A stretch of 64,000 nt of DNA from Candidatus Omnitrophota bacterium (GTDB lineage Bacteria > Omnitrophota > Gorgyraeia > Duberdicusellales > 4484-171): the NCBI GenBank assembly GCA_003154195.1, contig PMCS01000030.1:59446-123445 (forward strand). The letters run 5' to 3'. Each line of letters begins with the position of its first letter. Position 1 is the first letter of the stretch. Below are positions 32,576 to 53,521 of this stretch, in pieces. The translations under genes were made by a program, and so were the position numbers. Under the pieces are notes generated by a model. That model had not been told where the DNA came from, did no database searches, and saw only the letters and a program-made list of their open reading frames with translations.

Positions 32576-32790
32576 TTGGAAGATGCAGACGATCGCTGAG
32601 GATACGTATATTTATAGTGATTTAACCTATAGGTTTATTATTATGCCAAGGGCTCAAAATATAAATTGGTCTTATTAATTAATTTTGGTTCTCCTAAAGT
32701 TACCATAAAAAGATTAATATATACTAAAGGCGCAGGATGATATTTTATCTGTGATCATCTGCTTCTTCTAATCAGTGATCATCCGTGACT
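32561..32790 (+). mobile_element. Internally deleted (MITE-like) copy of the TIR-bounded GxxExxY element
   Basis: gcagatgatcgctga...tatagtgatttaacctata is the 5' ~70 bp of the element. It then jumps to ttatgccaagggctcaaaatataaattggtcttatt...tatctgtgatcatctgcttcttctaatcagtgatcatccgtgac, the 3' ~150 bp plus right TIR. Both parts are ~90% identical to 37678-38147. Confidence 0.7.
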
Positions 32791-34302
32791 ATGAAAATCA
32801 TAATTTGTTTTCCTCCCTTAAGCAACGAAAAAGGCTATCCGACCTTAGGCCAGAACCGGCAATTCCAATATTTTAAAGAACCGACATATATTTATCCGGT
32901 GGTTCCGGCAACCGCCGCCACGATGTTGGCCAAACGCGGTTTCGATGTAGTCTGGCTTGATTGTATCTCCCAGAATTTATCTTCCGATAAATTCCGGGAT
33001 ATAATCAGAAAAGAGAAACCGGATTTGGTTGCTTTAGAAACAAAAACCCCGGTAATAAAACAGGAGTGGCGTGTCGTCGATGATCTCAAGCGATTGGCGC
33101 GGGAAGAGGGTTGGAATTTAAACGTTGTATTGTTCGGCGACCATGTTACGGCCTTGCCGCAGGAGTCATTTGACAATTGCGGCGTCGATTTTATTTTAAC
33201 CGGCGGCGACTACGACTTTTTACTGCTTAATCTTTGTAATTTTCTTAAAGAATTTCCTTCGCTTCCCGCGCGCGATTTTAACGGGCCGGTCATGACCGGC
33301 CCCTACAGGTTAGAGCCGGGAATCTGGTACCGGGCGGGTAACGAAATAAAGAATACCGGTACTTTTAAGCTCGACCATGATTTGAATAGCCTTCCTTTTA
33401 TCGATCGAGACCTTACCCGATGGCCGCTTTACGCTTATAAAAATGGAAACTACCGGCGTACCCCGGGGACTTATATCATGTCGGCCCGGGATTGCTGGTG
33501 GGGAAAGTGTACTTTTTGCGGGTGGACGACAATCTATCCGCATTATCGAGCGAGAGGAGTTAAAAATGTTTTAAACGAAATAGAATATTTAGTTAATAAT
33601 TATAAGATTAAAGAGATTATGGACGATTCCGGGACTTTTCCCGTTGGAGAGTGGCTGAATAATTTTTGCCGGGGCATGATTGAACGCGGTTTGAATAAAA
33701 AAGTTACCCTTGATTGCAATATGCGTTTTGGCGCGGTTGACCGGCCGGGTTATGAATTAATGCGAAAGGCGGGGTTCCGGTTTTTACTTTTCGGTTTAGA
33801 GTCGGCCAGCCAGCAGACTTTAGACCGAATTAATAAAAATTTGAAGGCCGAAACGATTGTCTCATCCTGCCGCGCCGCCCGCGCCGCCGGCCTTTATCCG
33901 CACATAACCCTGATGTTTGGCTACCCCTGGGAAAGTTATGAGGATGCCGAAAAAACTCTCCAATTAGGAAAGTACCTGCTTAAAAAAGATTATGCTTATA
34001 CGATGCAGGCGACGGTGGTCATCCCTTATCCCGGCACTCCTTTGTTCGACGAATGCAAAAAGAACGGGTTATTATATACTCTCGATTGGCAGGAGTATGA
34101 TATGAAAAAACCGGTGATGAAATTATCGTTCGCTCCGGATAAATTAATGAGCCTCGTCCAGAGCATGTACGCGGTAACTTTTTCTCCCGAATTTATTTTT
34201 CGTAAATTATTAAGCATAAGGGATATCAACGATATAAAATATTTTGGCAGGGGATTTTTAAAAGTGCTGGGGCATCTGCTTGATTTTCGGAAAAGAAGTT
34301 AG
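32791..34302 (+). CDS. Cobalamin-binding radical SAM enzyme (class B)
   Basis: N-terminal B12-binding-like domain. Cluster motif DCWWGKCTFCGW. The ATG lies 2 nt after the right TIR. Confidence 0.7.
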   Translation: MKIIICFPPLSNEKGYPTLGQNRQFQYFKEPTYIYPVVPATAATMLAKRGFDVVWLDCISQNLSSDKFRDIIRKEKPDLVALETKTPVIKQEWRVVDDLKRLAREEGWNLNVVLFGDHVTALPQESFDNCGVDFILTGGDYDFLLLNLCNFLKEFPSLPARDFNGPVMTGPYRLEPGIWYRAGNEIKNTGTFKLDHDLNSLPFIDRDLTRWPLYAYKNGNYRRTPGTYIMSARDCWWGKCTFCGWTTIYPHYRARGVKNVLNEIEYLVNNYKIKEIMDDSGTFPVGEWLNNFCRGMIERGLNKKVTLDCNMRFGAVDRPGYELMRKAGFRFLLFGLESASQQTLDRINKNLKAETIVSSCRAARAAGLYPHITLMFGYPWESYEDAEKTLQLGKYLLKKDYAYTMQATVVIPYPGTPLFDECKKNGLLYTLDWQEYDMKKPVMKLSFAPDKLMSLVQSMYAVTFSPEFIFRKLLSIRDINDIKYFGRGFLKVLGHLLDFRKRS

Positions 34303-40010: not shown

Positions 40011-40193
40011 TGGGCAGATGCGGAGAGCCATATTGTGTATTTTTATACAGCCGAAAAGCAAACGGAGTTTACGCGGGCTTGCGCGTAAAACTTTATATAG
40101 GTATAAATATATTAACTTAACAACAATAATGTTTTTCTAATGGCAATTTATTTTCGCGGGAACCGCGAAGATAAATCAGGAGGGTTCAAACCC

Positions 40194-43100
40194 ATGCTTA
40201 ACCTACTTAACCACAAAAAAGTCAACGGTTTAACTAAAGTCTTAATTTCTACCCTGGCGTTTTTATTTTTCTTTTCCAGCCTGGGTATCTCGCGTGCCTT
40301 GCCGCAAGCTGGGCCCGGCGCCATTATGGCGAGCCTGCCGGTTCCGGGGCAGATGGTAAATATTACCCCGCCGTTCACTCCGGTGTTGATTAAAGGCCTT
40401 AAGCTCGACGTCAATGACCCGTTTAAATTCAACTTTATTGTCGAGCCGGGCGACAGCCGATTGAAAGACGCTCAATTAAAAGAAGAAATCTCCGATTTAG
40501 TGCGCTACTTCTTAACCGCCTTAACCGTTCCCGAATCTGACCTTTGGGTCAACCTTTCGCCGTTTGAGAACAGCCGTGTTATCACCGATGAATTGTCGTC
40601 GACCGATTTAGGCCGCGATTTGTTGGCTTCCGATTACATTCTCAAGCAATTAGTTTCTTCCCTGACCTATCCGGAATCGCCTTTAGGCAAAAAATTCTGG
40701 GATAAAGTATACAAGCGCGCCGGCGAATTATACGGCACCACCAAAATCCCGGTCAATACGTTTAATAAAATCTGGATTATGCCCGAATCGGCTTCGATTT
40801 ACGAGAACGGCAACCAGGTGATTATCTCCGATATTAAACTCAAAGTGATGCTGGAAGCGGATTATCTGGCGATGAAGAATACCAAGGGGCAGGGGGCAGG
40901 AGTCAAGGGCCAAAGCGAAAATACAAAAAAGGATATCAATGATTTAAGCGGGCAGATCATGAAGGAAGTGATCCTGCCGGTCATCGAGCAGGAAGTCAAC
41001 CAGGGAAAGAATTTTGCCAAAGTGCGTCAGATCACCTATTCGATTATCCTGGCCAGCTGGTTTAAACTGAAACTCAAAGACAGCCTGGTGGCTAAAGCCT
41101 ATGCCAATAAAAAGACGATGAAGGGCGTCGATACCAGCGACCCGGCGTTACGCGAACGCATTTATCAGCAATATGTCTCCGCCTATAAAAAGGGCGTCTA
41201 TGACTATATCAAAAAAGAATTCGAAGGTAATTCTTCGCGCCAGGTAAGGCGCAGGTATTATTCCGGCGGGTATACCATCAGTAATGCTGTAGAGTTGGTC
41301 AGCGGCGGGGTGGAGGTCACCACCCCCCAGTTTGCTCAAGCCGCGGCTCGTAAAGAAACAGTAATCGCCACGGCTTTAGTAAACGAGGGGGGCGTCACCG
41401 CTTCGCCGGTTGGAATCATGTCGTCCCCGTTGGCTAGAGTCACTGAACTAAAAGGTAAGATAATTCCTTCTCTTGAAAGGGATCTTGCGGCAAAAATGGC
41501 TGTGCATCGAAAACAACAGGCGAATATCAAGGACGAACATCAGCGACAGGTGGGCATATATGCGAGAACTTGGGCTACGCAGGCACTTCTCAAATATGAC
41601 ACTGAAATCAGTAAGAGAGCCAACTACGATGGTGACAGGGTAGCCGCCGCTTGGGCAGATCTACAACAGGCTAAAGCTGCGTGGAATGTAGAAAAAGAAC
41701 TTGATCAACGTCGTTTGGAACTAGCGAGCCTAGAACTAGAAATAAGAATAAAAAAAAGAGGGTCTTCGGCGGTAGCCGCTTCGCCGGTAACACCTGTGGA
41801 GGATGGATTTACCTCGGCAATAGCCGGTTTTTACGCTATGGCGGGCCAAGCTAAACCTGATTGGCGAACGATGCGAGCTGAAGTTGAAGGAAAATATAAT
41901 ACGCTCAAGGCAGAATTAGATAGAGCCCACGAGGAAGCCGACAGACAATATAAGGAAAGGATGACTCAGAACAATGAATTACTTCAAGCATGGTCTGACT
42001 TGGAAGAGGCTGTAGGAAAAGTAGCGAAAGAATTAAGGCAAGTAGAAACAGAAATGGCAAATGTTGCTGGCCAGGAAGGTAGTCAAGATAAAGTATCTGC
42101 TTTGCGACAGCGATTAGATGAAATAAAGGCAAGATATTCATCGATTCTTGCTAAAAAAGACGAAGCTGATGCCCGTATGGTAGCAGATTTCAATGAAAGA
42201 GTGAACCCCTTAAGACTTTCCTTGGAGACTATCGAAATCAAACTCCTTGCTGCTGAATTAGAGTTTAGGATGGTTATGGCGGGATATCCTAACGTTGGAA
42301 TTATGAATGGTATTATCCAGGAATATGAGACAGGAGCAAGAACGCATTCGACTTTGGCAGACTATAGAGAGATGATTGGTCACGAATCGATTACTGAAGA
42401 GATGCTTAAACCTTTGGCGGAAGCGATAGAAAGAGCCAAGGCACGCGTTGCTGATCTTAAGGCTAAAGAAGGTAAGGCTTCGGATGCGGCTCAAGAAGCG
42501 CCGACCGCGCCGACCGCGCCGGCCGCGCCGGCCGCGCCGACCCACGAAGCTGAGTCAACGGCCAGAGCTTTAGAGACCCCGGAGGTAACGCCAACGCAAG
42601 TCACTATGCAGTCGACGGAAATGTTGGCTGCAGCGGTTAATGATTTGGCAGACCAACATCGGGTGCGCTCTGAAGCAATGGTAAGGGCGCAGGCAAAACG
42701 TGAGACGCTGAAAACAGAGCTTGAGGCGGCGAGGCAGGCGGCCGATTCAGCTCTCGGCCAATCAGACTATGATACGCTTCGAGAAGCCTGGGCGCAAAAA
42801 AGCAGAGAATGGGATGAATTTATCACGCAGACATTTAACCCTCAAGTTGATCCATATAATGCCGGTTTAGCCCGGTTGCAAGCGGCCAGGATAGCGGCTG
42901 ATGTGGTGGCGTATAGAGGCGAAGGCCGGAGCATCGGGGATACTGATGTTAAGATGTGGCAGGCCCTGGGCGATAAGATTAGGGCGACAATTGAGTACTT
43001 AGAAGATACGGGAGAACGGTTCGCGGAGCCGCACAATAATGCCCCGACGGTTGAGCAGCTCAAGAATCTTGACGCGGAATTGGCATTAGCTAAAAGTCAT

Positions 43101-46100
43101 CTTAGCGTGGCGTACTATGCGCAAGGGTTAACGGAAACGCCGGCTTTTTTAAACGAGCTTTCCCAGGCCAGCGCGGAAAATCAAGATAGAGCGATTAAAG
43201 AAATTGTTAAGATTGCCCAAGGTAAAGGAAAAGTCTTGGCGGAAATAATCAGGCTCATTAATAGAACATCCGGTCTGCCGGAAAACCTTCGGCCGGTTAC
43301 CACTAAGCTTCTTGCCGCGATACATAAAGAACCGGGTTCGACGAAGGATTTGCTCGGGCGTCCCAGGGCGCCTAAGATCCGGGCCGCCGTGATTGATGCG
43401 CTCGATAAAATTCCCGGAAGCGACAGTGATGCAGCGCTTGAGCTTATTGGGGTTGGGCCTGGGGGTGAAGCCGTGCCTGGGGGTGAAGCCGCGATGGATG
43501 TTTTAGCGACACGAAAACAGTTAGGGGGTAGAATCGGCAGTGGAGAGCCGGAAAGAGGGGATAGCGGTATGCGGAGACTTTTAGAAGAATTCCCCCCTGA
43601 TCCGGATAAGCCGACACCATCAGACTCGGCTAAGGACGCAGCGGCCAAGCTTGCCGCCGCGGCTAAAGCTGGTGACGCCAGTGCGGCGACAGCCGCGGTG
43701 CTGGATGCATCCATGGGAGTGGACCGCGTAGCTCAAGCCAGCAAGACCGGAACCGACTCGGAGCGTATTACCGCTCTTGATCTTCTTTTTTCGATTGCTA
43801 CTACCGGCCAGGGGTCGCGCCGCGCCCGCTGGGCGATTACTGATGCCGCGGTTAACGCCGATAGTTCAGCTGCCGTGCGGATTGCCGCGCTTAAATATCT
43901 TGGCGCGCTCAACAATCACGCCGCGCTTCCGGCGCTTAACCATGTAATTAACGATATCGCTGGTAGGTCTCAGGCGGATAGGGATAAAGCCGGCCTTGCT
44001 GCGGTCAGCGAGGCGGCGCGCCAGGCTATCAAAGATATCAATGAAACCAATGCCAAGCCCAATGCGCTTGTCAGATTAACCAACGCTTTTAAGGCAATTT
44101 ACTATAGGTTGATAACCAATAGCGCCCAAAGCGCGCCTGCGGGTGCATCTACGACTACGTCAACTGCCAAGGGCGGTGGTAATGTCGTCGGCGGGGGAAA
44201 TGACGATGCTGCCGCTAAAGCTCTTGCTCAAGCAAAAGAAGCCGCGGCTCAAGCCCTTACTGAAGCAAAGGCAAAAGTCGAACCCGTTACTGCTGATTTG
44301 AGAGATAAACAACATCAAGCCGAAATCGAAGCTACAATTGCGGCACGTACGCAAAGAGAGTTTGTGGAATTGGGTAAACAACGGGCCGCCAAAGAAAAAG
44401 AATTGGCCGATGCCCAGGCGGCAAAAACTGCCGCCGACCAGGCTGTTGCCACTCTTGAGGCGCCGCCGGTTAAAGTGCCGGGGAAAAGAGCGCCCTCGGC
44501 TGCTAAGAGGAAAAAAGACCTTGCCCAAGCCAGGAAAAATGCCGGGTACGCCACGGCTGAAGTCGAGAATCGTACGCGGGGATTGAATGATTTGGTATCG
44601 CTTGCGGTGAATCCGGCTGAAGCCAGGGCTGCAGCGGCTAAGACTGCGGCTGATGAGGCCGCGAAGCTTGCGGCAGAGGCCGAAACACAGGCAAAAGCGG
44701 CGCAAACCGCAGTTGACGAGGCGCAAGCTAAGGTGGAGCAATTGAATGCGCCGCCTAGCCAGTCCACCGGAACGGCGGCCGGCAATAAGCCGAATTTAGC
44801 TGTCGACGCCGCCAAGAAATTAGCCGATATCCCGCCGGATGAGCCTGTGTCGGTAGAGGAGAGTTTAGCTGAAGCCGCCGCCCGGATATTGGGCCACGGC
44901 GCTTCCGAAATAATCAATAGTGATCCGGAGGTAGCTGCCGTCCGGCTTTTAGATATTTTAAAAGACCCTGATCAATCTGCCGACCGCATCTCTGTTTTGA
45001 GATTGCTGGGGGAGATAGCCATGACTGAAATAATTGCTAAATATCGGCCGCAAGAAGCTGTGCCTGCGTCGGAAGGAGGGCCGGCCGTGTCGTCCGCGGT
45101 AAAAGTGATGAACGTCGAGTTGTCTTCTCATGTTGGGGCTATTTTGAATGCTATACTTGCTACTTTTAGGCAGGAAGGGGATGCCGGTATCCGTATCGCC
45201 GCGCTTGAGCAATTAGTCGAGTTAGGTTTATCTTTCCCCCCTGAAAGTGGGGGACGGGTTCCGATAATAAATGCAATCCAGTCAGTTGCCAAGAGCGGGA
45301 AAGGAGAAGATAAAGCAGTAATAAAAGCCGCTAAACAGGCTTTGATCGATATGGGGGTTCGTAGCAAATTGGGAAGGATAGGGCTACTTGCGGGGTTGGC
45401 GGTGGCGGTGGCTTTTGGCGGCTACGCGTTGCAACATGCCATGCAGGCTCCCGTCCCCGGCCTTGTTCCGGGCGTCGGCCATCTACCCGGAGGCCCCGAC
45501 GGAGGCCTCGATGTCGGACATCACGGCGCAAATCTGCCCCAGTTGATTATGCCTTCCCAAATGCCCCCGGATGATTATAAGTGGAGCCTGGAGCAGAACA
45601 GCGCGGGAAAATTGTTTTGGGTTGCCGTACCCGATTATTCTAAGCATCCCGATATTATGACCAGAGACCAAATTAATACACTTTATAATCCTCCGCCCGG
45701 TTTTTATCGGGACGGGAGTGATGCAGGCAGGTTGAATGCTTGGCTGGTGCCGATGTTTCCTATACCGGTACAGTCTACAGCGCCGGCCGGAACCGATACC
45801 GGTGTTCAAACTGCTACCGGCGTCATGGCCATCGATGCCGCAGTCCAGAAAGTCGCCGTTTCCGCGGCTCGTGAGGCGTTAGCCAATAGAGATACCGGCA
45901 AATCCGCGCTGGATTCCCAAGCGGTAACGCCCGACGCCGGAAAAAGCGACAAAACTGCCGTCGATGGCGGTACTACAGTAGATGTTCCCGGAGCGTATAC
46001 TACTACTCCGGTGGAAAAGGAAAAGATTCCCGCGACATCCCCTCCGGCTGATAATGGGAGCAATCCGACCGGAACAGGAGCAGCAGCAACCACAGGCGAT

Positions 46101-47315
46101 GCGGGAAAGACTGTGACTCAAGCTCCCGCGGCAACAGGCAACGCGAATGTTAAAAAACAAGCAGGAAAAAACGACGATAAAGTAATGAAAAAACTCCACG
46201 ATGAAGAAATGGCCAAACGAGCGAATGCGAAATTACTTTTGGAAACGGCCATCCATGACTATCTGTTGGATCATGGAATGCCCACGGATGATGGAGCAAT
46301 CCAGAAAATAAGGGCAGACAATAAGCTTGAGGGCGATCACAAAATCCCATTTCACAATCCGTACTATATTCGTATTAATGGAACATCAGTTAAGGTACCC
46401 GGAGCAGATTCATTACCTCTATCTCTGGCCACGAAAGCCCCGGCGGCGAAAGCTGCGAGACTTAGTTTTGACCAAGCGATAGAGGGGGATTTGGCTTCCC
46501 CCTCCGGCCCCACCCATGTTGATCGCGGCGTTCGTAAGGCTACTGAAAAGGTTAAAAATGATATAGCCAGCATCAATGGCTACAAGCGGACTCCTGACGG
46601 CCTTTTGACAGATGATGGTAAGCCGGTTCCGCCGGGGAAAAAGCTATTAATGGTACCGCCTTCACTGGGTGACCCTTATTATGAGTCAGCGCTTAAGGAT
46701 TTCCAGGCAAAGGCATACGCTTATCTGCAGCAACATCCTGACGCTTCGATGGACGAAGCGATAGATTATGTCGACCGTACCACCCCGCCTTATCAGGAGA
46801 CTAAGTGGGCATACGCTGGTTCAGAACAGGGGGGTAAAGAAGGACGTAGAGTTCCGCTTGGTAAGCCGGTAACTTTTAGGGATTTAGTAGAGCACAATGG
46901 TATTGTTTGGGATGGCCCGTCGGATAACAACGCCCCCTCCGGTACCGCGACTGGTGATAGCGGTACTCCCGGGGTTGGGCACGGTAACACGCCGGGTGAT
47001 GCGACCGGCATTGGTGGGGGAGTAAAGGCGAAGGTACTAGATTTTCTTCACGAGGCGGGGTTCGGCCGCCAGCTTCCGACAACGCAACAGGTTTTTACTG
47101 GACTTAAGGGAATGAGCAGCAGTTCGCCGGACACTAAAGGCGGTATCGATATGAACACCGCCAAGACGGCGATGAATATCAAAGGCGACGGGAAATTCGC
47201 TTTTGCTTCCTCGGCGCTTAAGGCCGACGGCCAGTCTTGGAAGGGGATTACGTTTACCATCGTGAAGGTAGAAAGGATCACTAACCCCGCGTTATTTTTC
47301 GCCGCGTCGCGATAG
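40194..47315 (+). CDS. Giant secreted/membrane protein 1 (2373 aa). It has a signal peptide, a conserved ~330-aa N-terminal domain of unknown function, coiled-coil and HEAT/PBS-lyase-like repeat regions, one internal TM helix, a Thr/Pro/Gly-rich region and a conserved ~55-aa C-terminal module.
   Basis: AGGAGG RBS 9 nt before the ATG at 40194. Signal peptide KVLISTLAFLFFFSSLGIS. The N-domain is ~80% identical to that of the 47582 gene. HEAT-like repeats include VRIAALKYLGALNNHAALPALNHV and IRIAALEQLVELG. The TM helix is RIGLLAGLAVAVAFGGYAL. The C-terminal module is IDMNTAKTAMNIKGDGKFAFASSALKADGQSWKGITFTIVKVERITNPALFFAASR. Confidence 0.8.
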   Translation: MLNLLNHKKVNGLTKVLISTLAFLFFFSSLGISRALPQAGPGAIMASLPVPGQMVNITPPFTPVLIKGLKLDVNDPFKFNFIVEPGDSRLKDAQLKEEISDLVRYFLTALTVPESDLWVNLSPFENSRVITDELSSTDLGRDLLASDYILKQLVSSLTYPESPLGKKFWDKVYKRAGELYGTTKIPVNTFNKIWIMPESASIYENGNQVIISDIKLKVMLEADYLAMKNTKGQGAGVKGQSENTKKDINDLSGQIMKEVILPVIEQEVNQGKNFAKVRQITYSIILASWFKLKLKDSLVAKAYANKKTMKGVDTSDPALRERIYQQYVSAYKKGVYDYIKKEFEGNSSRQVRRRYYSGGYTISNAVELVSGGVEVTTPQFAQAAARKETVIATALVNEGGVTASPVGIMSSPLARVTELKGKIIPSLERDLAAKMAVHRKQQANIKDEHQRQVGIYARTWATQALLKYDTEISKRANYDGDRVAAAWADLQQAKAAWNVEKELDQRRLELASLELEIRIKKRGSSAVAASPVTPVEDGFTSAIAGFYAMAGQAKPDWRTMRAEVEGKYNTLKAELDRAHEEADRQYKERMTQNNELLQAWSDLEEAVGKVAKELRQVETEMANVAGQEGSQDKVSALRQRLDEIKARYSSILAKKDEADARMVADFNERVNPLRLSLETIEIKLLAAELEFRMVMAGYPNVGIMNGIIQEYETGARTHSTLADYREMIGHESITEEMLKPLAEAIERAKARVADLKAKEGKASDAAQEAPTAPTAPAAPAAPTHEAESTARALETPEVTPTQVTMQSTEMLAAAVNDLADQHRVRSEAMVRAQAKRETLKTELEAARQAADSALGQSDYDTLREAWAQKSREWDEFITQTFNPQVDPYNAGLARLQAARIAADVVAYRGEGRSIGDTDVKMWQALGDKIRATIEYLEDTGERFAEPHNNAPTVEQLKNLDAELALAKSHLSVAYYAQGLTETPAFLNELSQASAENQDRAIKEIVKIAQGKGKVLAEIIRLINRTSGLPENLRPVTTKLLAAIHKEPGSTKDLLGRPRAPKIRAAVIDALDKIPGSDSDAALELIGVGPGGEAVPGGEAAMDVLATRKQLGGRIGSGEPERGDSGMRRLLEEFPPDPDKPTPSDSAKDAAAKLAAAAKAGDASAATAAVLDASMGVDRVAQASKTGTDSERITALDLLFSIATTGQGSRRARWAITDAAVNADSSAAVRIAALKYLGALNNHAALPALNHVINDIAGRSQADRDKAGLAAVSEAARQAIKDINETNAKPNALVRLTNAFKAIYYRLITNSAQSAPAGASTTTSTAKGGGNVVGGGNDDAAAKALAQAKEAAAQALTEAKAKVEPVTADLRDKQHQAEIEATIAARTQREFVELGKQRAAKEKELADAQAAKTAADQAVATLEAPPVKVPGKRAPSAAKRKKDLAQARKNAGYATAEVENRTRGLNDLVSLAVNPAEARAAAAKTAADEAAKLAAEAETQAKAAQTAVDEAQAKVEQLNAPPSQSTGTAAGNKPNLAVDAAKKLADIPPDEPVSVEESLAEAAARILGHGASEIINSDPEVAAVRLLDILKDPDQSADRISVLRLLGEIAMTEIIAKYRPQEAVPASEGGPAVSSAVKVMNVELSSHVGAILNAILATFRQEGDAGIRIAALEQLVELGLSFPPESGGRVPIINAIQSVAKSGKGEDKAVIKAAKQALIDMGVRSKLGRIGLLAGLAVAVAFGGYALQHAMQAPVPGLVPGVGHLPGGPDGGLDVGHHGANLPQLIMPSQMPPDDYKWSLEQNSAGKLFWVAVPDYSKHPDIMTRDQINTLYNPPPGFYRDGSDAGRLNAWLVPMFPIPVQSTAPAGTDTGVQTATGVMAIDAAVQKVAVSAAREALANRDTGKSALDSQAVTPDAGKSDKTAVDGGTTVDVPGAYTTTPVEKEKIPATSPPADNGSNPTGTGAAATTGDAGKTVTQAPAATGNANVKKQAGKNDDKVMKKLHDEEMAKRANAKLLLETAIHDYLLDHGMPTDDGAIQKIRADNKLEGDHKIPFHNPYYIRINGTSVKVPGADSLPLSLATKAPAAKAARLSFDQAIEGDLASPSGPTHVDRGVRKATEKVKNDIASINGYKRTPDGLLTDDGKPVPPGKKLLMVPPSLGDPYYESALKDFQAKAYAYLQQHPDASMDEAIDYVDRTTPPYQETKWAYAGSEQGGKEGRRVPLGKPVTFRDLVEHNGIVWDGPSDNNAPSGTATGDSGTPGVGHGNTPGDATGIGGGVKAKVLDFLHEAGFGRQLPTTQQVFTGLKGMSSSSPDTKGGIDMNTAKTAMNIKGDGKFAFASSALKADGQSWKGITFTIVKVERITNPALFFAASR
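42498..42542 (+). repeat. In-frame 9-bp tandem repeat (x5) encoding APTAPTAPAAPAAPT within giant gene 1
   Basis: gcgccgacc gcgccgacc gcgccggcc gcgccggcc gcgccgacc. Confidence 0.8.
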
Positions 47316-47344
47316 AAAGACCGTAAGGCCGTAGGACGTGGTCC

Positions 47345-47525
47345 GCCAATTCGTGATACGAATCGGCGAGACCTCGCCATCTACGGGATGGCGGGGACGT
47401 CTGCGGCAGCAGCCGCTGGGACGTGGGTGAAGAAAGTCCATAGTCGATAGATTGAAACTGAAAAACGGGAAATACGAGAAACGGAAAGGCAGAAAAAGCG
47501 AAAAAGAAGGAAAAATCTGTATCTT
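47345..47525 (+). repeat. Family-D repeat (copy Y) immediately downstream of giant gene 1
   Basis: See 39440-39625. Its 5' part also matches the reverse complement of 9462-9515. Confidence 0.65.
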
Positions 47526-47535
47526 TTTTACATTG

Positions 47536-47549
47536 CTATAGCAATATTT
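47536..47549 (+). promoter_or_regulatory. Perfect 14-bp palindrome ATTGCTATAGCAAT in the putative promoter of giant gene 2
   Basis: ttttacATTGCTATAGCAATatttttttt lies 33 bp upstream of the ATG at 47582. A GAAGGA RBS sits at 47565-47570. Confidence 0.4.
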
Positions 47550-47581
47550 TTTTTATACATTTTCGAAGGATATTCAAAACT

Positions 47582-50500
47582 ATGCTTACTTTTAATCCAA
47601 AAAAATCAAATGCCGGTAAAGTTTTTTCGTCTTTTATGGCGTTTGTTTTTTTCTTTACCAGCTTAGGCACGGGTAAGGCCTTTTCGGATAACGGGCAATT
47701 AAGCCTTGCGTCTCTGCCTTTACCGGGCCAGATGGTCAATCTCACTCCGGTGTTTACTCCCGCCCTGCTCAAAGGCCTGAAACTTGACGCGAACAATCCG
47801 TTAAGATTCAATTTCATCGTCGAACCGGGCGATACGAAATTCGGCGAAGCGAAACTAAAAGAAGAAGTCTCCGATATGGTCCGCTATTTCCTGGCCGCGC
47901 TGACCATACCCGAATCTGACCTCTGGGTAAACCTTTCTCCGTTCGAAGGCGGCAGGGTAATCACCGATGAATTGTCGTCAACCGATCTGGGCCGCGACAT
48001 GCTGGCTTCCGATTATTTATTGAAACAATTAGTCTCTTCCCTGACCTATCCCGAATCAGCCTTAGGCAAAAAATTCTGGGAAAAAGTGTACAGAAGAGCC
48101 AATGAAGTTTATGGGACGGCTAAGATACCGGTCAACACTTTTAACAAAATATGGATTATGCCGGAGTCGGCATCGATTTTTGAGAACGGGGATAAAGTGG
48201 TAATCTCCGATATCAAACTGAAGGTGATGCTGGAAGCTGATTATTTTGCTATGCAAAATAATCAGGCCAAAGACCAAAAAACTGGAAAACCGAAAAACGA
48301 AAAAACTTTTACCACGGGTAATCAATCTGACGGTAAAGCGGTTAATGATTTATCCGGGCAGATCATGAAAGAAATCATCCTGCCGGTCATCGAGCAGGAA
48401 GTAAACCACGGCCAGAGTTTTGCCAAATTGCGCCAGATCATCTACTCCGTCATTCTGGCCGGTTGGTTTAAATTAAAATTAAAAGACAGTATTGTCAACC
48501 AGACTTACAGCGATAAAAAGAAGATGAAGGGCGTAGATACTTCTGACCCGGCGTTAAAAGAAAAGATATATCAACAATACGTGCAGGCTTATAAGAAAGG
48601 CGTCTATGATTATATCAAGAAAGAATTCGAGGCTAATTCCCATAGACAAGTCCGGCGCCGTTATTTCTCCGGCGGCGTAGAGCTTCTCTACGGGAAGCTT
48701 GTCGGTGATACCCAGCGAGTTCCCCCTGAAGCGTTTGCCGGAAAATTAAGCAGTCCGCTCGAAGCCGAGGCGGCCACGGTTGAGTTAGCGCCGGCTTCGC
48801 TGCCTAATAGTTTCCTGGGCGAGGTGCCTCCGGGCTATGTCAGCCCATGGGTTGACCGGAAAGGTAAAGATGGCCCAATCGATCAGCATTTGCCTACATT
48901 GGCTCAATACGATAATGTCCTAATCGCTATAACGACGGGGCCTGAGGCCGTAGAGGAGATTGTCACGAGAGAAGGCCCGCTTGCGGCGCCCAATTTTGTC
49001 AGGGCGCTCGAGGATAATGCTATGGGAGAATTTAGGAAAGAAATTATTAACGTTCTTGGTAGAATAGGAGATGCGAGCGCAATTGGCAATATCGTCAGGT
49101 TCGGCATTGATTACATTGGTAGAAAAACCCCGGCTGGAGAAGTGCGCGCAGTGCATTTAGCCGCAATCGAGGCGATTAAGAATATAGGTATGCGCTATAT
49201 TTGGAATATTGATCATGCTTTTTGGATGCTTAGCCTTGCGGTGGAGGGAATAGGGGACGCGGAGCTTCACGCAAAAGCGATTGACGCTCTCAGGGAAATG
49301 GCGGCCTTGATGGTTAAGACTAACCCGATAGATGATGAAAAAGCCGTATACGCTTCCAGGCTCGCTTATTACAGGCAATTTTTCCAGAGGCTTCTGAGCA
49401 TGGCTAGGACTAAACCTAATAAAAGAGGTGTAGTCGATTATGGAGTTGTAGACAAGGATGTCCGTATCGTCGCTATTTCTGCTCTCGCGCCTGTAACTGC
49501 AGCCGCTAAAGATAATAGATTTGTTTCTGATCCCGAATATGATGGCTTTCTTTCGGGTGTTCGTTCGGAACTTACGGGTGTGGCTACTGATGAAAAAGAC
49601 AATCCGGAGGTGCGCGCCGCCGCAGTTCGTGCTCTTGGGGTGATGGCTGCTAATAAGCGGTTCCCGATCATGATTTATCATACACTTGAAGATATGTTTA
49701 CAAGAGACAGTCCGGATATGCCGGATATTGTTAGGGCTGCTCTTCGCGAGGTTCTTCCGGCGGTAAGCAAAGACGCCGGTACTGTCGCGGCTTCTCCGGT
49801 TACCGCCCTGAAGCCCGCGGCCGCGGATGAGGCCAGGCCGGGAGAGACAGGGCGAAAGCGGGGAGATGTTTTAAGAGCACTTAGGGCTTCTGAAAGAGAC
49901 CTGGCAACTTTAGAAGCCGCCTTAGAAGCTAAAAGTTGGGCATATCAATTATATACGGCGGGCTTTGATGAAGCCGCCGCAGGAGAGTTAACCGACGCTG
50001 TCAGGGTTAAGAAGCTTCCGCTTACAGGCAGGTATCGGCCCACTGATGATGGGGTCATGTTGATTGTTCATGCCGAGATTGGGGCGATTTCACGCACCGA
50101 AACGGAGCGTCTTGGTAGTTTAGAAAGACAAAGAGAAATCAGGGAGCTTGATGATAAGGTTAAAGCTAAAAGAGCGCAGGTTATTGAGCTCGGATGGGCG
50201 GCGCGTGAGCTTGAGGCAGCTCAGCAGGAGCGCCATGCTGTCGCCCTGAGAAGATTAGAAGAATTAAAGGCTAAATTTCAAAAGGCGGTGTCTGGTTTTA
50301 CAAGCGCTTTAGAAGAAGCTCAAGGGAATGGCCCAGAGGCTGTTGCTGCCGCCAGGGGTGATCTTGATAAGTTGTTGGGAGAAATCCAACTCGCCGGCGA
50401 CGCGATTACGCAAGCGTTGGCTCGTTATAGAGAAGAGGGGATCGATCTTGGCGATGAGGCTCTGGTTGCCGGGACGCGTACTATCGGGGGAAAACCGGCA

Positions 50501-52084
50501 GAGGATACAATCTTGGAAGTGCAAACTATCATCGCTCGGTTGAGAGTAGATATGAGGGAATTATCCGATGCCCACAATCAGGCAGTGCAAGAAACCATCG
50601 AGCGATTAAGAGGGGATACAAGGGAGTTAGCTTTAGTATCGCTCGGGGAGTTTCTGTCCGACCGCGATACGGGACTTATAAGGTCGGGGGCTTCAAAGAA
50701 TTCCAGCGTCGGGCGAGGTAATTGGTTATGGAATTTGTTGAGGAGCAGGTTTACATACGCGGTTCTGATAGGAGGCGTGTTGGGTGGCCTTGCCGCGTTT
50801 CCTGTAGCCAGGTCTACTAATGCGGTCAAGCTCGATGTTTCTCTTAAGATTAAAGGAGGATTGACGGAGGCCGTGGCGCCGGCGTCGAAGCCGGAGCCAG
50901 GGTACGTAGGCTTTTTTCAGCTTCCAGAGCAGCCTAGCCCGTGGACGAGGACGATAGTAGTAAAAGCAAAGAAAGGCGATACTGTAGATGGACTATTAGG
51001 TAAGTATAACCCGGAATGGCCTGAACTTTCTCATGAAATGAGGATGGGCGGGCGAGAAGCTTTACGTGATTTTAATCCAGGAGTAGGGCCGGCATATCTT
51101 ATAATAGAAGGCAAGCGTTATAGAATACCTGCATATGTCAGTTCCGCGGTAGCCGAAGCGGCACAGGCGCGCGATAGAGATGGTTTGCAGGGGGAACTTA
51201 AAAGGGTTCAGGCAGAGCTTGAGCTTGCCTTACTGAAGCAGCGCGGCCTTAGAGGGGAAGCTGTCAAAACAAATCAGAGGCATGTCGCGGCGCTTGAGCG
51301 GAGGAGGGAAGCTATTGAGGCATCGTTAGTGGAGATAACGCTGGATGAGGCATTTAAGGGATTGCTTGATTTAGAACAATACGAGTCTAACTTAGCTAAA
51401 GGAAACGAGCAAGTCGGGGTGTCTTCAAAAGACCTCGCCGGTTCATTACCGGATTTAGGTAAGCAATATGATATCTTTGTCAGATGGCTTGTGTCTGAGT
51501 ACGATAGGATAGGGGGGGTAAAGATATTTCCAATACCAGCTTCAAAGGTGGAGCACTTAACTGCTATACTCAGCAGTCTTAATGATGGGCTGGAATCTGC
51601 CCAAGTATGGCAGAAAGAGATCTCTGGAATTTTGTCAAGATACGAGAGATTGCTCGGCGAGCCGCTTTTTACAGTAGATTATGAATTAGACAGATTACGG
51701 CCGGTTGTGGAATCAGCGCCAAAAACCAATGAACTTTATACTAAATTGATTGCGGATATTAATGAGTTGATAGCAAGGGCCAGCAGGGATCTTGCAGTAG
51801 CGAGAGAAGAAGCAAGGGCCGCGTCGCATCATCAAACAGTAACCGGTAGAGTTGTTGAGAAGCGTGCCAGCGCGAGTCCTGTCGGCGCGAGTTCTAACGC
51901 ACCCGTCGGCGGTATTGATTTAAACACTGCGAAAACAGCGATAAAGATCAAAGGCGACGGCAATTTCGCTTTTGCTTCCTCGGCGCTTAAGGCCGATGCG
52001 TCGGGGTTATTGGGATATACGTTTACCATCGTGAAACTGGAAAAGATCGCTGATCCCACCGCGTTCTTCGCCTCCGCCAAATAA
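47582..52084 (+). CDS. Giant secreted/membrane protein 2 (1500 aa), paralog of 40194-47315. It has a signal peptide, the conserved N-domain, HEAT-like repeats, coiled coil, an internal TM helix, a LysM-like segment and the conserved C-terminal module.
   Basis: Signal peptide FSSFMAFVFFFTSLGTG. N-domain SLPLPGQMVNLTP...YFSGG. HEAT-like repeats include PEVRAAAVRALGVMAANK. TM helix FTYAVLIGGVLGGLAAFPV. LysM-like KKGDTVDGLLGKY...AYLIIEGKRYRIP. C-terminal module IDLNTAKTAIKIKGDGNFAFASSALKADASGLLGYTFTIVKLEKIADPTAFFASAK. Confidence 0.8.
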   Translation: MLTFNPKKSNAGKVFSSFMAFVFFFTSLGTGKAFSDNGQLSLASLPLPGQMVNLTPVFTPALLKGLKLDANNPLRFNFIVEPGDTKFGEAKLKEEVSDMVRYFLAALTIPESDLWVNLSPFEGGRVITDELSSTDLGRDMLASDYLLKQLVSSLTYPESALGKKFWEKVYRRANEVYGTAKIPVNTFNKIWIMPESASIFENGDKVVISDIKLKVMLEADYFAMQNNQAKDQKTGKPKNEKTFTTGNQSDGKAVNDLSGQIMKEIILPVIEQEVNHGQSFAKLRQIIYSVILAGWFKLKLKDSIVNQTYSDKKKMKGVDTSDPALKEKIYQQYVQAYKKGVYDYIKKEFEANSHRQVRRRYFSGGVELLYGKLVGDTQRVPPEAFAGKLSSPLEAEAATVELAPASLPNSFLGEVPPGYVSPWVDRKGKDGPIDQHLPTLAQYDNVLIAITTGPEAVEEIVTREGPLAAPNFVRALEDNAMGEFRKEIINVLGRIGDASAIGNIVRFGIDYIGRKTPAGEVRAVHLAAIEAIKNIGMRYIWNIDHAFWMLSLAVEGIGDAELHAKAIDALREMAALMVKTNPIDDEKAVYASRLAYYRQFFQRLLSMARTKPNKRGVVDYGVVDKDVRIVAISALAPVTAAAKDNRFVSDPEYDGFLSGVRSELTGVATDEKDNPEVRAAAVRALGVMAANKRFPIMIYHTLEDMFTRDSPDMPDIVRAALREVLPAVSKDAGTVAASPVTALKPAAADEARPGETGRKRGDVLRALRASERDLATLEAALEAKSWAYQLYTAGFDEAAAGELTDAVRVKKLPLTGRYRPTDDGVMLIVHAEIGAISRTETERLGSLERQREIRELDDKVKAKRAQVIELGWAARELEAAQQERHAVALRRLEELKAKFQKAVSGFTSALEEAQGNGPEAVAAARGDLDKLLGEIQLAGDAITQALARYREEGIDLGDEALVAGTRTIGGKPAEDTILEVQTIIARLRVDMRELSDAHNQAVQETIERLRGDTRELALVSLGEFLSDRDTGLIRSGASKNSSVGRGNWLWNLLRSRFTYAVLIGGVLGGLAAFPVARSTNAVKLDVSLKIKGGLTEAVAPASKPEPGYVGFFQLPEQPSPWTRTIVVKAKKGDTVDGLLGKYNPEWPELSHEMRMGGREALRDFNPGVGPAYLIIEGKRYRIPAYVSSAVAEAAQARDRDGLQGELKRVQAELELALLKQRGLRGEAVKTNQRHVAALERRREAIEASLVEITLDEAFKGLLDLEQYESNLAKGNEQVGVSSKDLAGSLPDLGKQYDIFVRWLVSEYDRIGGVKIFPIPASKVEHLTAILSSLNDGLESAQVWQKEISGILSRYERLLGEPLFTVDYELDRLRPVVESAPKTNELYTKLIADINELIARASRDLAVAREEARAASHHQTVTGRVVEKRASASPVGASSNAPVGGIDLNTAKTAIKIKGDGNFAFASSALKADASGLLGYTFTIVKLEKIADPTAFFASAK

Positions 52085-52127: not shown

Positions 52128-52185
52128 AGAATACCAATCTTATTCTGGTTTTTTCAATCTGATTAATCTGTGGACAGTATTTTTT
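52128..52185. repeat. Repeat family H (copy 2)
   Basis: ttctggttttttcaatctgattaatctGTGGACAGTATTTTTTTTGGTT resembles 28775-28835. Confidence 0.4.
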
Positions 52186-53521
52186 TTGGTTTTATTTTAA
52201 TCCTTTTTTCTTCATTCTCTCCCTCAAATCTTCTATTCAGTTCCCGCAAATAATTTTTTATCTCCCAAAATTCCCGTAGTCTGTTTTCGCTGAACGCCCC
52301 GAATACCGAATTGTTCTGTAAGAGCGGTTCGCTGAATTTATCGCGATAGGCTTCGAACATTCGCGTGCCGGGAGTGGGCGAAAATTCGGCAAAGGAAGCT
52401 TTAGCGCCCAGGCGATGGAGGAAATCTACGTCGGTTTTCAGGGTTTCCAGATTTTGTCCCGGATAACCCAGAAGCAGATAGGCGCTGAATTCTCCGGGCT
52501 CAAACCCGCCTTTTTTTAACAGTTCAGCGCCGTGGATAACATCCTGGCGGTTGACTTTATCGCCCCATTGTTTTTCTAAATCAGGGTCAAGGGTTTCCAA
52601 CCCGAAATGGGGATTGATAAAACCGGTTGCTTTAAGCAGGGCGGCTAGTTCCTCGTCTAAATAACGCAGGTGCAGGGCATTGGGGGTGTGGAAGCGCAGG
52701 CCAAGATTCAAGGCGGCGATCTCTCTTAAAAAGTTTTTCGCGTATTCCGGCTCGCAAAGGAAAGCATCATCATACAGGACGAAGTCTTTTATGTTTTTCC
52801 CGGCGTATTTTTTTATGAACTCGATTATTTTTCCCGGCGCCAGCCGGAAAAAATAGGGGGATAACTTTTTTACGGCGCAATAACTGCAGTCAAAGGGGCA
52901 GCCCCAGGAGGTACGAAAAACCGCGTAATCCAGCCGGGGGTAAAAGTTTTCGTAATCAGGCAGGGCCGCGTATAATTCGCCATAGTCAACTTTAATCCCC
53001 AGCAGTTTAAAAAAATCATCCAATTGCCCATTGGCAAAAATGTAATCGGCGGGGATATTTTTTTTGGCGTGTTCATAGCATAGTGTCGCGTAGGTACCGC
53101 CTACGATTATCGGAGTTTCAGGAAAATGCTTTTTTAGTATTTTTATCGCTTCGATTATTCCCGGATACCAGTAGGTCATCGAAGAAGTTATCAGGATGTA
53201 GTCGAGGTTTTTATTAAAAAAAAGGTGTCTGTCCCCTTTATTAGAGGGAAGTTTTGCTTCGAATTCATCGGGGGTAAGGCCGTAGCGTTTGTAATAGCGG
53301 GGGATATTGGCGAAAATCTCAGGTTTTTTGATGATTTCCGAATGGTATTTCCCCCGGCCGAAATCGGCGTACGTTTCTTTTTTTTCCAGGCAGTCGAGAT
53401 AATGGATATCCGCGCCTTGGCTTTTAAGGTATTCCAGGATCACCAGGAACCCGTAGGGTTTCAGCCAGAAATCATAAGCGGCGAAATCGTAAATCCAGGG
53501 GTTTATGGCCAGAACGTGCAT
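52163..53521 (-). CDS. Cobalamin-binding radical SAM enzyme (class B)
   Basis: N-terminal B12-binding-like domain (VLAINPW...LVILEYLKSQGADIHYLD). Cluster motif GCPFDCSYCAV (CX3CX2C). Confidence 0.75.
   Translation of the reverse strand: MHVLAINPWIYDFAAYDFWLKPYGFLVILEYLKSQGADIHYLDCLEKKETYADFGRGKYHSEIIKKPEIFANIPRYYKRYGLTPDEFEAKLPSNKGDRHLFFNKNLDYILITSSMTYWYPGIIEAIKILKKHFPETPIIVGGTYATLCYEHAKKNIPADYIFANGQLDDFFKLLGIKVDYGELYAALPDYENFYPRLDYAVFRTSWGCPFDCSYCAVKKLSPYFFRLAPGKIIEFIKKYAGKNIKDFVLYDDAFLCEPEYAKNFLREIAALNLGLRFHTPNALHLRYLDEELAALLKATGFINPHFGLETLDPDLEKQWGDKVNRQDVIHGAELLKKGGFEPGEFSAYLLLGYPGQNLETLKTDVDFLHRLGAKASFAEFSPTPGTRMFEAYRDKFSEPLLQNNSVFGAFSENRLREFWEIKNYLRELNRRFEGENEEKRIKIKPKKILSTD

Follow-up and report, generated by a model that had tools for sequence, protein, structure and literature searches.

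Short conserved elements at the C-termini of exported proteins are known from the type IX secretion system (T9SS) of the Bacteroidota, whose C-terminal domain (CTD; TIGR04183 / Por_Secre_tail) is a phylum-restricted, linker-preceded stretch of 60-100 residues on many Sec-exported paralogues with unrelated cargo, and from sortase-type signals, where a short invariant motif lies near the C-terminus of many exported paralogues with a hydrophobic stretch downstream. Here we describe a C-terminal module with a GGID(M/L)N box on the products of two adjacent genes, A and B, in 64,000 nucleotides of a Candidatus Omnitrophota genome (contig PMCS01000030.1; this whole stretch is referred to as the window). 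This module marks the C-termini of a very large family of exported modular proteins that is specific to the Omnitrophota. Judged by analogy, its closest counterparts in mode of action appear to be the T9SS CTD and sortase-type signals, as it is C-terminal, phylum-restricted and present on many paralogues.

The Omnitrophota are widespread, uncultured and ultra-small, and large multi-domain proteins are among their least understood traits. A predatory or parasitic way of life has been proposed for these bacteria, which have giant multi-domain proteins (PMC10066038; 10.1101/2023.11.21.568195). Giant 'multi-enzyme' or Archaeovorin proteins of the phylum combine a signal peptide and/or transmembrane (TM) segments with cytoplasm-type enzymes in very long polypeptides (10.1101/2023.11.21.568195; 10.64898/2026.06.07.730766). 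The family described here comes from the same phylum and has phosphoglucomutase, NUDIX, HEAT, response regulator and methyltransferase domains in common with those giants, which differ in size with 10-147 thousand residues compared to 0.6-3.6 thousand. Text searches of PMC10066038, 10.1101/2023.11.21.568195 and 10.64898/2026.06.07.730766 gave no mention of a common N-terminal domain or of a GGIDLN module, and further literature searches found no description of the family.

A C-terminal module shared by Omnitrophota exported proteins

The C-terminal modules of A (residues 2324-2391) and B (residues 1435-1500) were aligned by BLASTP with 43 of 68 positions identical (63%, E 3e-20). The sequence-only reading of this DNA had noticed this module and placed it at nt 47146 and 51907, close to where the GGID(M/L)N box begins (nt 47139 in A, 51908 in B). 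It had considered the regions just upstream to be unrelated, and BLASTP indeed gave no significant alignment between the middles, i.e. the approximately 1,000 to 1,950 residues upstream of the modules. Its description of the proteins as otherwise divergent holds for the middles, but not for the N-termini, which are 70% identical over approximately 375 residues (E 2e-168). On the nucleotide level the modules are 68% identical with differing codons at 11 of 41 conserved residues, and in the N-terminal domain codons differ at 101 of 249 conserved residues. The many synonymous differences under conserved residues imply selection on the protein, not DNA homology, and no recent gene conversion. For the same reason conservation of the ends for DNA-level recombination was rejected.

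A profile of the module was built from 13 sequences and compared with a library that holds 1.84 billion representative proteins, where it matched 6,395 clusters with E<=1e-3 and, at the stricter cutoff of E<=1e-10, 3,014. Because the profile matches thousands of clusters the similarity of the modules is not due to chance, and module-bearing proteins are not confined to A and B, the outcome that would have spoken against the initial proposal. Among the best 150 profile matches the module ended 1-59 residues before the C-terminus (median approximately 8) in proteins of 77-3,551 residues; taking these together with the open reading frames (ORFs) of the loci described below, it was C-terminal throughout, 0-59 residues from the stop. 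All named module-bearing proteins are from Omnitrophota metagenome-assembled genomes (MAGs). The module is restricted to one phylum, occurs in multiple copies per genome and is very widespread.

The consensus of the module starts with GGIDLN, of which GGID is invariant, and continues with about 10 variable residues and (K/R)DG-x-G, often accompanied by a short helix DPAM(I/L)xx(L/I). A second, beta-strand-like box, G-F-x-P-V-I-I-N-I-x-P-x-x-x-L-P-x-L-L-G-L, follows 35-45 residues after the first, and the module closes with 0-40 variable and often acidic residues. The modules of A and B represent a rarer subtype with G-x-T-F-x-I-x-x-x-E-R as the second box. Their nearest relative was P0055 with 44% identity, and similar endings were seen in loci L013, L017, L020, L132, L134 and L141. 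The hidden Markov model (HMM) of the module matched A and B with E-values of 1.5e-19 and 5.8e-18, both modules ending 2 residues before the stop. A word-indexed search with the window module alone retrieved a 67-residue fragment of the window module as its only match, and a metagenome scan for the window-type module yielded no relative. A six-frame HMM scan of the window detected no copies of the module or the N-terminal domain beyond A and B.

No described element was recognised. The module of A or B matched nothing at E<=10 in Pfam or in NCBIfam including its PEP-CTERM, LPXTG, GlyGly-CTERM and T9SS-CTD models, the modules of five full-length relatives had no Pfam match, and PADLOC and a PDB sequence-profile search with the module gave nothing significant. 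Dockerin_1 was not matched by A, B or the modules. The view that the module corresponds to no known motif, and is neither a known CTD nor a dockerin, was thus upheld.

The second conserved element of the family is an N-terminal domain of approximately 340 residues (N-domain) with the motifs WVNLSP.E, NTFNK.W, LKVMLE.DY and YFSGG, which had no match in Pfam, NCBIfam or a PDB profile search. A search with this domain returned 698 relatives with 45-51% identity, the named ones being nearly all Candidatus Omnitrophota MAGs; a recognisable relative of the window module ended 15 of 120 N-domain relatives among the matches listed. The N-domain family HMM matched A and B with E-values of 1e-149 and 2e-150. 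Scanning one genome per GTDB species for the N-domain resulted in at least 595 matching stretches, of which 576 were confirmed. The best 80 of the at least 595 stretches and 79 from a metagenome scan were combined to 159 loci, all of them fetched via the N-domain, and analysed by six-frame HMM scans. The best 80 loci are all from Omnitrophota MAGs, some labelled 'uncultured Planctomycetales'. Because their top identity to the window was 51%, the genome of the window itself is not among them. Several MAGs contributed at least three loci to the best 80, and two or three tandem family genes on the same strand, as in the window, were present in 24 of the first 80.

The 159 loci revealed a common layout of Sec signal peptide, N-domain, variable middle and C-terminal module of ~65 residues. 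Both ends were found in 57 plus 47 complete stop-to-stop ORFs of 614-3,361 residues, while no complete ORF carried the module without the N-domain. Fifty ORFs with only the N-domain ran past the end of the fetched DNA, and 11 with only the module ran past its 5' end. Another 25 N-domain-only ORFs were complete; in 13 of these the C-terminus is a divergent tail of the GGIDL...GFTFxI type, as in the window subtype, and most of the remaining ones look truncated or frameshifted. Seven module-only pieces were internal, five of them downstream of N-domain ORFs in other frames, i.e. frameshift splits, and two (L031, L150) short remnants. Stand-alone small module-only proteins were considered and rejected, as in four of four checked cases, taken from long contigs, N-domain fragments lie upstream of the module and the long-read assemblies are prone to errors. 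Many module-only database 'proteins' of 60-170 residues (L160, L161, L162, L001, L150, L051) stem from long-read assemblies, in which long genes and housekeeping genes alike are split into small ORFs by frameshifts.

A Sec signal peptide with a basic n-region and a hydrophobic core directly preceded the N-domain in 118 of 126 members, and 115 of these 118 had a small-x-small site, typically AQA. With signal peptides family-wide and varied middles, the earlier description of a short conserved C-terminal module on exported proteins with unrelated cargo was borne out.

Next to the conserved ends the middles are remarkably free to vary. In nine tandem pairs including that of the window the N-domains were 44-73% and the C-terminal modules 29-65% identical, and the middles were without detectable similarity in all nine. 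The identities of N-domain and module within the pairs correlated with r = 0.54. Middles range from 100 to more than 3,000 residues, may consist of coiled coils, HEAT or ankyrin repeats or entire metabolic enzymes, and most have no Pfam match; those of A and B gave weak HEAT-like and coiled-coil signals alone. Among the recognisable cargo of relatives, a protein of 2,730 residues (L012, 726-8915) contains phosphoglycerate kinase (E 3e-102) and an HMGL-like domain, and one of 3,031 residues (L067, 9971-19063) contains malate synthase, class-I fructose-bisphosphate aldolase (2e-78) and isocitrate lyase (2e-79). Other relatives carry CofD, phosphoglucomutase, UDP-glucose pyrophosphorylase, PPDK, methyltransferases, a response regulator, ankyrin repeats, SMODS-associated NUDIX and P-loop domains.

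Two linker motifs, D-x-A-M and (A/S)-S-P-(V/L/I), recur at the boundaries of the cargo and are 15-fold and 8-fold enriched in the middles over the expectation from composition. They were found within 60 residues after the N-domain in 49% of the members and within 30 residues before GGIDLN in 35%, compared to 8% per 60-residue window elsewhere. The motifs could be processing or boundary sites.

A homology of the C-terminal module with the N-domain was rejected (hhalign E 0.2). A local resemblance exists between the tail of the module, PVIINITPxxxLxxLLGL, and the start of the N-domain, MVxLSPxFxPxLLKG. A position weight matrix scan of this resemblance had a median score of -12.3 and was no better than shuffled sequences (-13.1); 36 of 113 best matches were near the start of the N-domain. 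Around residues 295-300 the N-domain holds a GGIDL-like K-x-x-G-(I/V)-D-h-x-D (NKVGGIDIEDK in L047 and L057, MKGVDTSDP in A), for which the profile comparison indicated no significant homology. A MAFFT alignment that mixed full-length proteins and C-terminal fragments was discarded, since the fragments were misplaced onto this motif at residue ~295.

Structure prediction by AlphaFold for P0079, a member of 600 residues (77 sequences in the alignment), had a mean predicted local distance difference test score (pLDDT) of 62. The N-domain was confidently predicted (pLDDT 80-97) as a mixed alpha/beta fold with long helices. It was followed by ~200 disordered residues and by the front half of the module (residues 536-572), which was modelled as two short strands and a helix with a pLDDT of 73-91. 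N-domain and front half of the module were the only confident parts of the model; the strongly conserved GFVPVIINIQPL stretch had a pLDDT below 50. The module of A alone (55 sequences) gave a pLDDT of 66 and a predicted template modelling score of 0.26 without strands, a poor model that does not prove the fold to be absent. A Foldseek comparison of the full P0079 model with the PDB found nothing similar.

A proposed partnership of the two ends and alternative explanations

We favor the view that module and N-domain are one localisation or assembly device that acts as a pair around varied cargo, and we put the probability of this reading at roughly 0.4. The module would bind the N-domain of its own polypeptide in cis and thereby close it, or it would bind the N-domain of another member in trans, which would result in head-to-tail chains; either way the paired ends would hold the varied cargo outside the cytoplasm. 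The reading is preferred because both ends stay conserved in the nine tandem pairs while the middles share nothing, and it accounts for the obligatory pairing, the correlated divergence of the ends, the AlphaFold pattern and the lack of a linked processing gene. The family-wide signal peptides and the selection on the protein, seen from the synonymous differences in both ends, also agree with it. By analogy, the pairing resembles the pilin motif and sorting signal of Gram-positive pilins, in which each subunit has an obligatory N-terminal element (the pilin-motif lysine) and a C-terminal sorting signal as required for head-to-tail assembly, or the frames of LapA, MARTX and TpsA. There is, however, no homology to pilins and no sortase was found, the middles of the Omnitrophota proteins are huge and unrelated, and a linkage, covalent or not, is pure inference.

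Several observations weigh against paired ends as a single device. A GGID that is invariant over thousands of sequences is more like a recognition or cleavage motif of an enzyme than a packing surface. The 159-locus sample favours co-occurrence of the two ends because the loci were retrieved through the N-domain, and of the 66 matches with at least 450 residues from the unbiased profile search, 41 carried the N-domain and 25 did not. Signal peptides are missing from these 25, which look truncated at the N-terminus; one starts with MPRKYFSGG, the end of the N-domain. An internal TM-like segment is present in 30 of 113 members including A and B and, if real, could place the N- and C-terminal ends on opposite sides of a membrane. 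Phosphoglycerate kinase and aldolase are hard to square with an extracytoplasmic site, and ATP-dependent glycolytic enzymes behind a Sec signal peptide are a topological puzzle. Finally, the two AlphaFold runs differ in sequence, subtype and alignment depth, and the putative contact of module and N-domain is read from AlphaFold confidence values only.

An extension of the paired-ends reading, which we consider quite unlikely, would make N-domain and GGIDLN module the halves of a new head-to-tail assembly or ligation system, with dozens of paralogues per cell building an extracytoplasmic heteropolymeric coat or scaffold on these ultra-small bacteria, which depend on hosts. N-domain and C-terminal module would be joined non-covalently by strand donation or covalently after cleavage at GG, and each paralogue would bring in cargo of its own, among it entire enzymes of glycolysis and the glyoxylate shunt. 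If true, this would be a new Omnitrophota-specific principle of protein sorting and assembly.

Alternatively, the module may be a stand-alone C-terminal sorting signal, with a separate role for the N-domain. It would be recognised by a dedicated enzyme or secretion machine, with cleavage probably at the invariant GG or close by, and the cargo would be released, attached to the envelope or moved across the outer membrane as by T9SS CTD/PorU, GlyGly-CTERM/rhombosortase or PEP-CTERM/exosortase. This was the proposal of the sequence-only reading, and the part of it concerning strict C-terminal position and spread has stood: the module is always less than 60 residues from the stop and occurs in thousands of clusters and several copies per genome of a single phylum. 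Highly diverse cargo, a flexible linker upstream of the module, D-x-A-M or (A/S)SP(V/L/I) linkers on both sides of the cargo as possible processing sites, and the order of invariant GGID, spacer and a hydrophobic stretch of ~18 residues with a TM-like score in some members also agree with such a signal. As an independent tag, however, the module did not hold up. In the retrieved ORFs it comes with the N-domain; a complete ORF with the module and a signal peptide only, the norm for true sorting tags, was not found, whereas T9SS cargo has no common N-terminal domain comparable to the ~340 residues seen here. The T9SS CTD is an autonomous beta-sandwich with Pfam and NCBIfam models, to none of which the Omnitrophota module is matched at E<=10. 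AlphaFold did not model the module of A on its own as such a domain, though a poor model is no proof against this fold.

Nor did the suggested likeness to LPXTG, PEP-CTERM and GlyGly-CTERM signals in layout persist. In contrast to sortase-type signals the Omnitrophota motif and its hydrophobic stretch are 35-45 polar residues apart, and the stretch is proline-rich with 3-4 prolines, contains K/E/R in the window subtype and has neither a TM helix nor a basic tail. Neither LPXTG nor a TM helix nor an Arg/Lys cluster occurs within the final 68 residues of A or B, and a PEP motif and a TIGR02595-type match are likewise missing from both proteins. As to GlyGly-CTERM, the invariant GG precedes IDLN and 35-45 polar residues without TM helix or basic tail, and there was no TIGR03501-type match; no NCBIfam or Pfam sorting-signal model was matched at all. 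A conserved protease or transpeptidase neighbour was absent from 80 loci, where clustering of neighbouring genes gave generic response-regulator and PAS proteins only. We regard a stand-alone sorting signal as less likely than paired ends, but as their main rival.

We regard it as improbable that the module serves as an anchor in the envelope or membrane, in which case the PVIINITPxxxLPxLLGL stretch or the GxTFxIxxxER strand would lie in or on a membrane, or would contribute a strand to a protein of the outer membrane or surface layer, and so tether the C-terminal end of the cargo. In conservation the stretch ranks second among the parts of the module, and in P0037, P0060 and P0064 its Kyte-Doolittle hydropathy over 19 residues rises to 1.65-1.72. 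That it is unstructured in the AlphaFold monomer (pLDDT <50) would fit the need for a partner or membrane. Yet the stretch is too rich in prolines and in polar or charged residues to form a TM helix, is not hydrophobic in the window subtype, ends in no terminal aromatic beta-signal and is often followed by an acidic variable tail. Moreover, an anchor leaves the invariant GGIDLN box and the obligatory N-domain unexplained.

Very unlikely, finally, is a frame for effector delivery toward a host or prey cell as in MARTX or two-partner-secretion toxins, in which N-domain and module would bring about secretion or translocation and the middles would be freed at the linkers. The proposed predatory or parasitic lifestyle of Omnitrophota with giant multi-domain proteins (see above) would suit such a role, as would the exchange of middles between conserved ends, cargo that resembles effectors (ankyrin, SMODS-NUDIX, methyltransferases, P-loop domains) and the enrichment of linker motifs at cargo boundaries. 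Like LapA and MARTX the family has conserved N- and C-terminal ends around a long variable region, but its proteins have no RTX or CPD domains, no protease domain, no RTX or glycine-rich repeats and no adjacent type I secretion system (T1SS) genes. There was no HemolysinCabind match, no T1SS neighbour was conserved in the 80 loci, and T1SS substrates have no Sec signal peptide, in contrast to 118 of 126 family members. With TpsA the family has in common a conserved domain right behind the signal peptide of very large secreted proteins. Still, the N-domain has no Pfam match (Haemagg_act/TPS), is predicted as alpha/beta with long helices and not as a beta-helix, and is not recurrently neighboured by TpsB. 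Glycolytic and glyoxylate-shunt housekeeping enzymes would be odd effectors, and most middles have no recognisable domain.

Irrespective of mechanism, these results point to one conserved two-ended frame of signal peptide plus N-domain and GGIDLN module in thousands of Omnitrophota proteins. Should this frame govern localisation or assembly, it would represent a new phylum-specific sorting system. The two HMMs provide a handle for cataloguing exported cargo, including the puzzling enzymes of central metabolism.

Genes A and B and their surroundings

Genes A and B are the sole long genes of their region (Table 1). The true start of A is probably M19, 18 codons into the longest ORF at nt 40194, because B begins at the position that corresponds to M19 (MLNLLNHKK... 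and MLTFNPKK...).

Table 1. Positions of genes A and B, their parts and neighbouring radical SAM genes in the window
Feature	Position (nt)	Strand	Remarks
B12-binding radical SAM gene	32785-34302	+	~6 kb upstream of A, end of glycan cluster
Third radical SAM gene	36096-37034		
Gene A	40140-47315	+	longest ORF 2391 residues; member of the N-domain/C-terminal module family
A, Sec-type signal peptide	40194-40310	+	predicted; basic n-region, hydrophobic LISTLAFLFFFSSLGI, small-x-small SRA/PQA
A, N-domain	40329-41306	+	~330 residues, from LPVPGQMVNITP to RRRYYSGG; uncharacterised, Omnitrophota-specific
A, variable middle	41307-47108	+	Ala-rich (by eye); coiled-coil and HEAT-like stretches
A, SSP-type linker motifs		+	residues 421, 428, 547
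A, internal TM-like hydrophobic segment	45378-45434	+	IGLLAGLAVAVAFGGYALQ, residues 1747-1765
A, C-terminal module	47109-47312	+	residues 2324-2391; GGIDMN box nt 47139-47156
A, amphipathic strand box of module	47244-47279	+	GITFTIVKVERI
Gene B	47582-52084	+	1500 residues; tandem paralogue of A
B, Sec-type signal peptide	47582-47680	+	predicted; KK...VFSSFMAFVFFFTSLG...GKA/F, cleavage before F
B, N-domain	47711-48694	+	78% identity to A over 318 aligned residues
B, SSP-type linker motifs	51872-51886 (residue 1431)	+	residues 390, 737, 1431
B, internal TM-like segment	50750-50806	+	FTYAVLIGGVLGGLAAFPV, residues 1057-1075
B, C-terminal module	51878-52081	+	residues 1433-1500; GGIDLN box nt 51908-51925; preceded by SASPV linker (residue 1431)
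B12-binding radical SAM gene	52163-53521	-	directly downstream of B

Upstream of A a glycan-biosynthesis cluster (25-36 kb) encodes GT1, GT2 and GT4 glycosyltransferases, a DegT aminotransferase, a methyltransferase, a HAD hydrolase, a flippase-like Polysacc_synt protein and B12-binding radical SAM enzymes. Radical SAM, YggS-like, PD-(D/E)XK and MBL genes lie between this cluster and A. The minus-strand gene downstream of B is followed by TilS, FtsH, FolP, a DAC-domain protein and PdxJ. No component of a sortase, exosortase, rhombosortase, T9SS, T1SS or TpsB system was recognisable among the 20 scanned neighbours in the window, and a scan for promoters and terminators around A and B was not better than shuffled sequences. 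Elsewhere, genes of the type II secretion/type IV pilus type (T2SSK, PilM/PilN) are located a few kb upstream of family genes (L160, 1-2562), and in L161 a TatC gene follows the family genes; neither arrangement recurred in the 80 loci.

In B, residues ~1100-1170 (~50880-51100), just after the TM-like segment, read VVKAKKGDTVDGLLGKYNPEW... and look LysM-like by eye; Pfam reported no LysM at E<=1. The internal TM-like segments of both A and B have basic residues on their N-terminal side. The middles differ from their surroundings in base composition, with 50-55% G+C (window 42000-46000 and 50000-52000) compared to 41-46% in the flanking genes.

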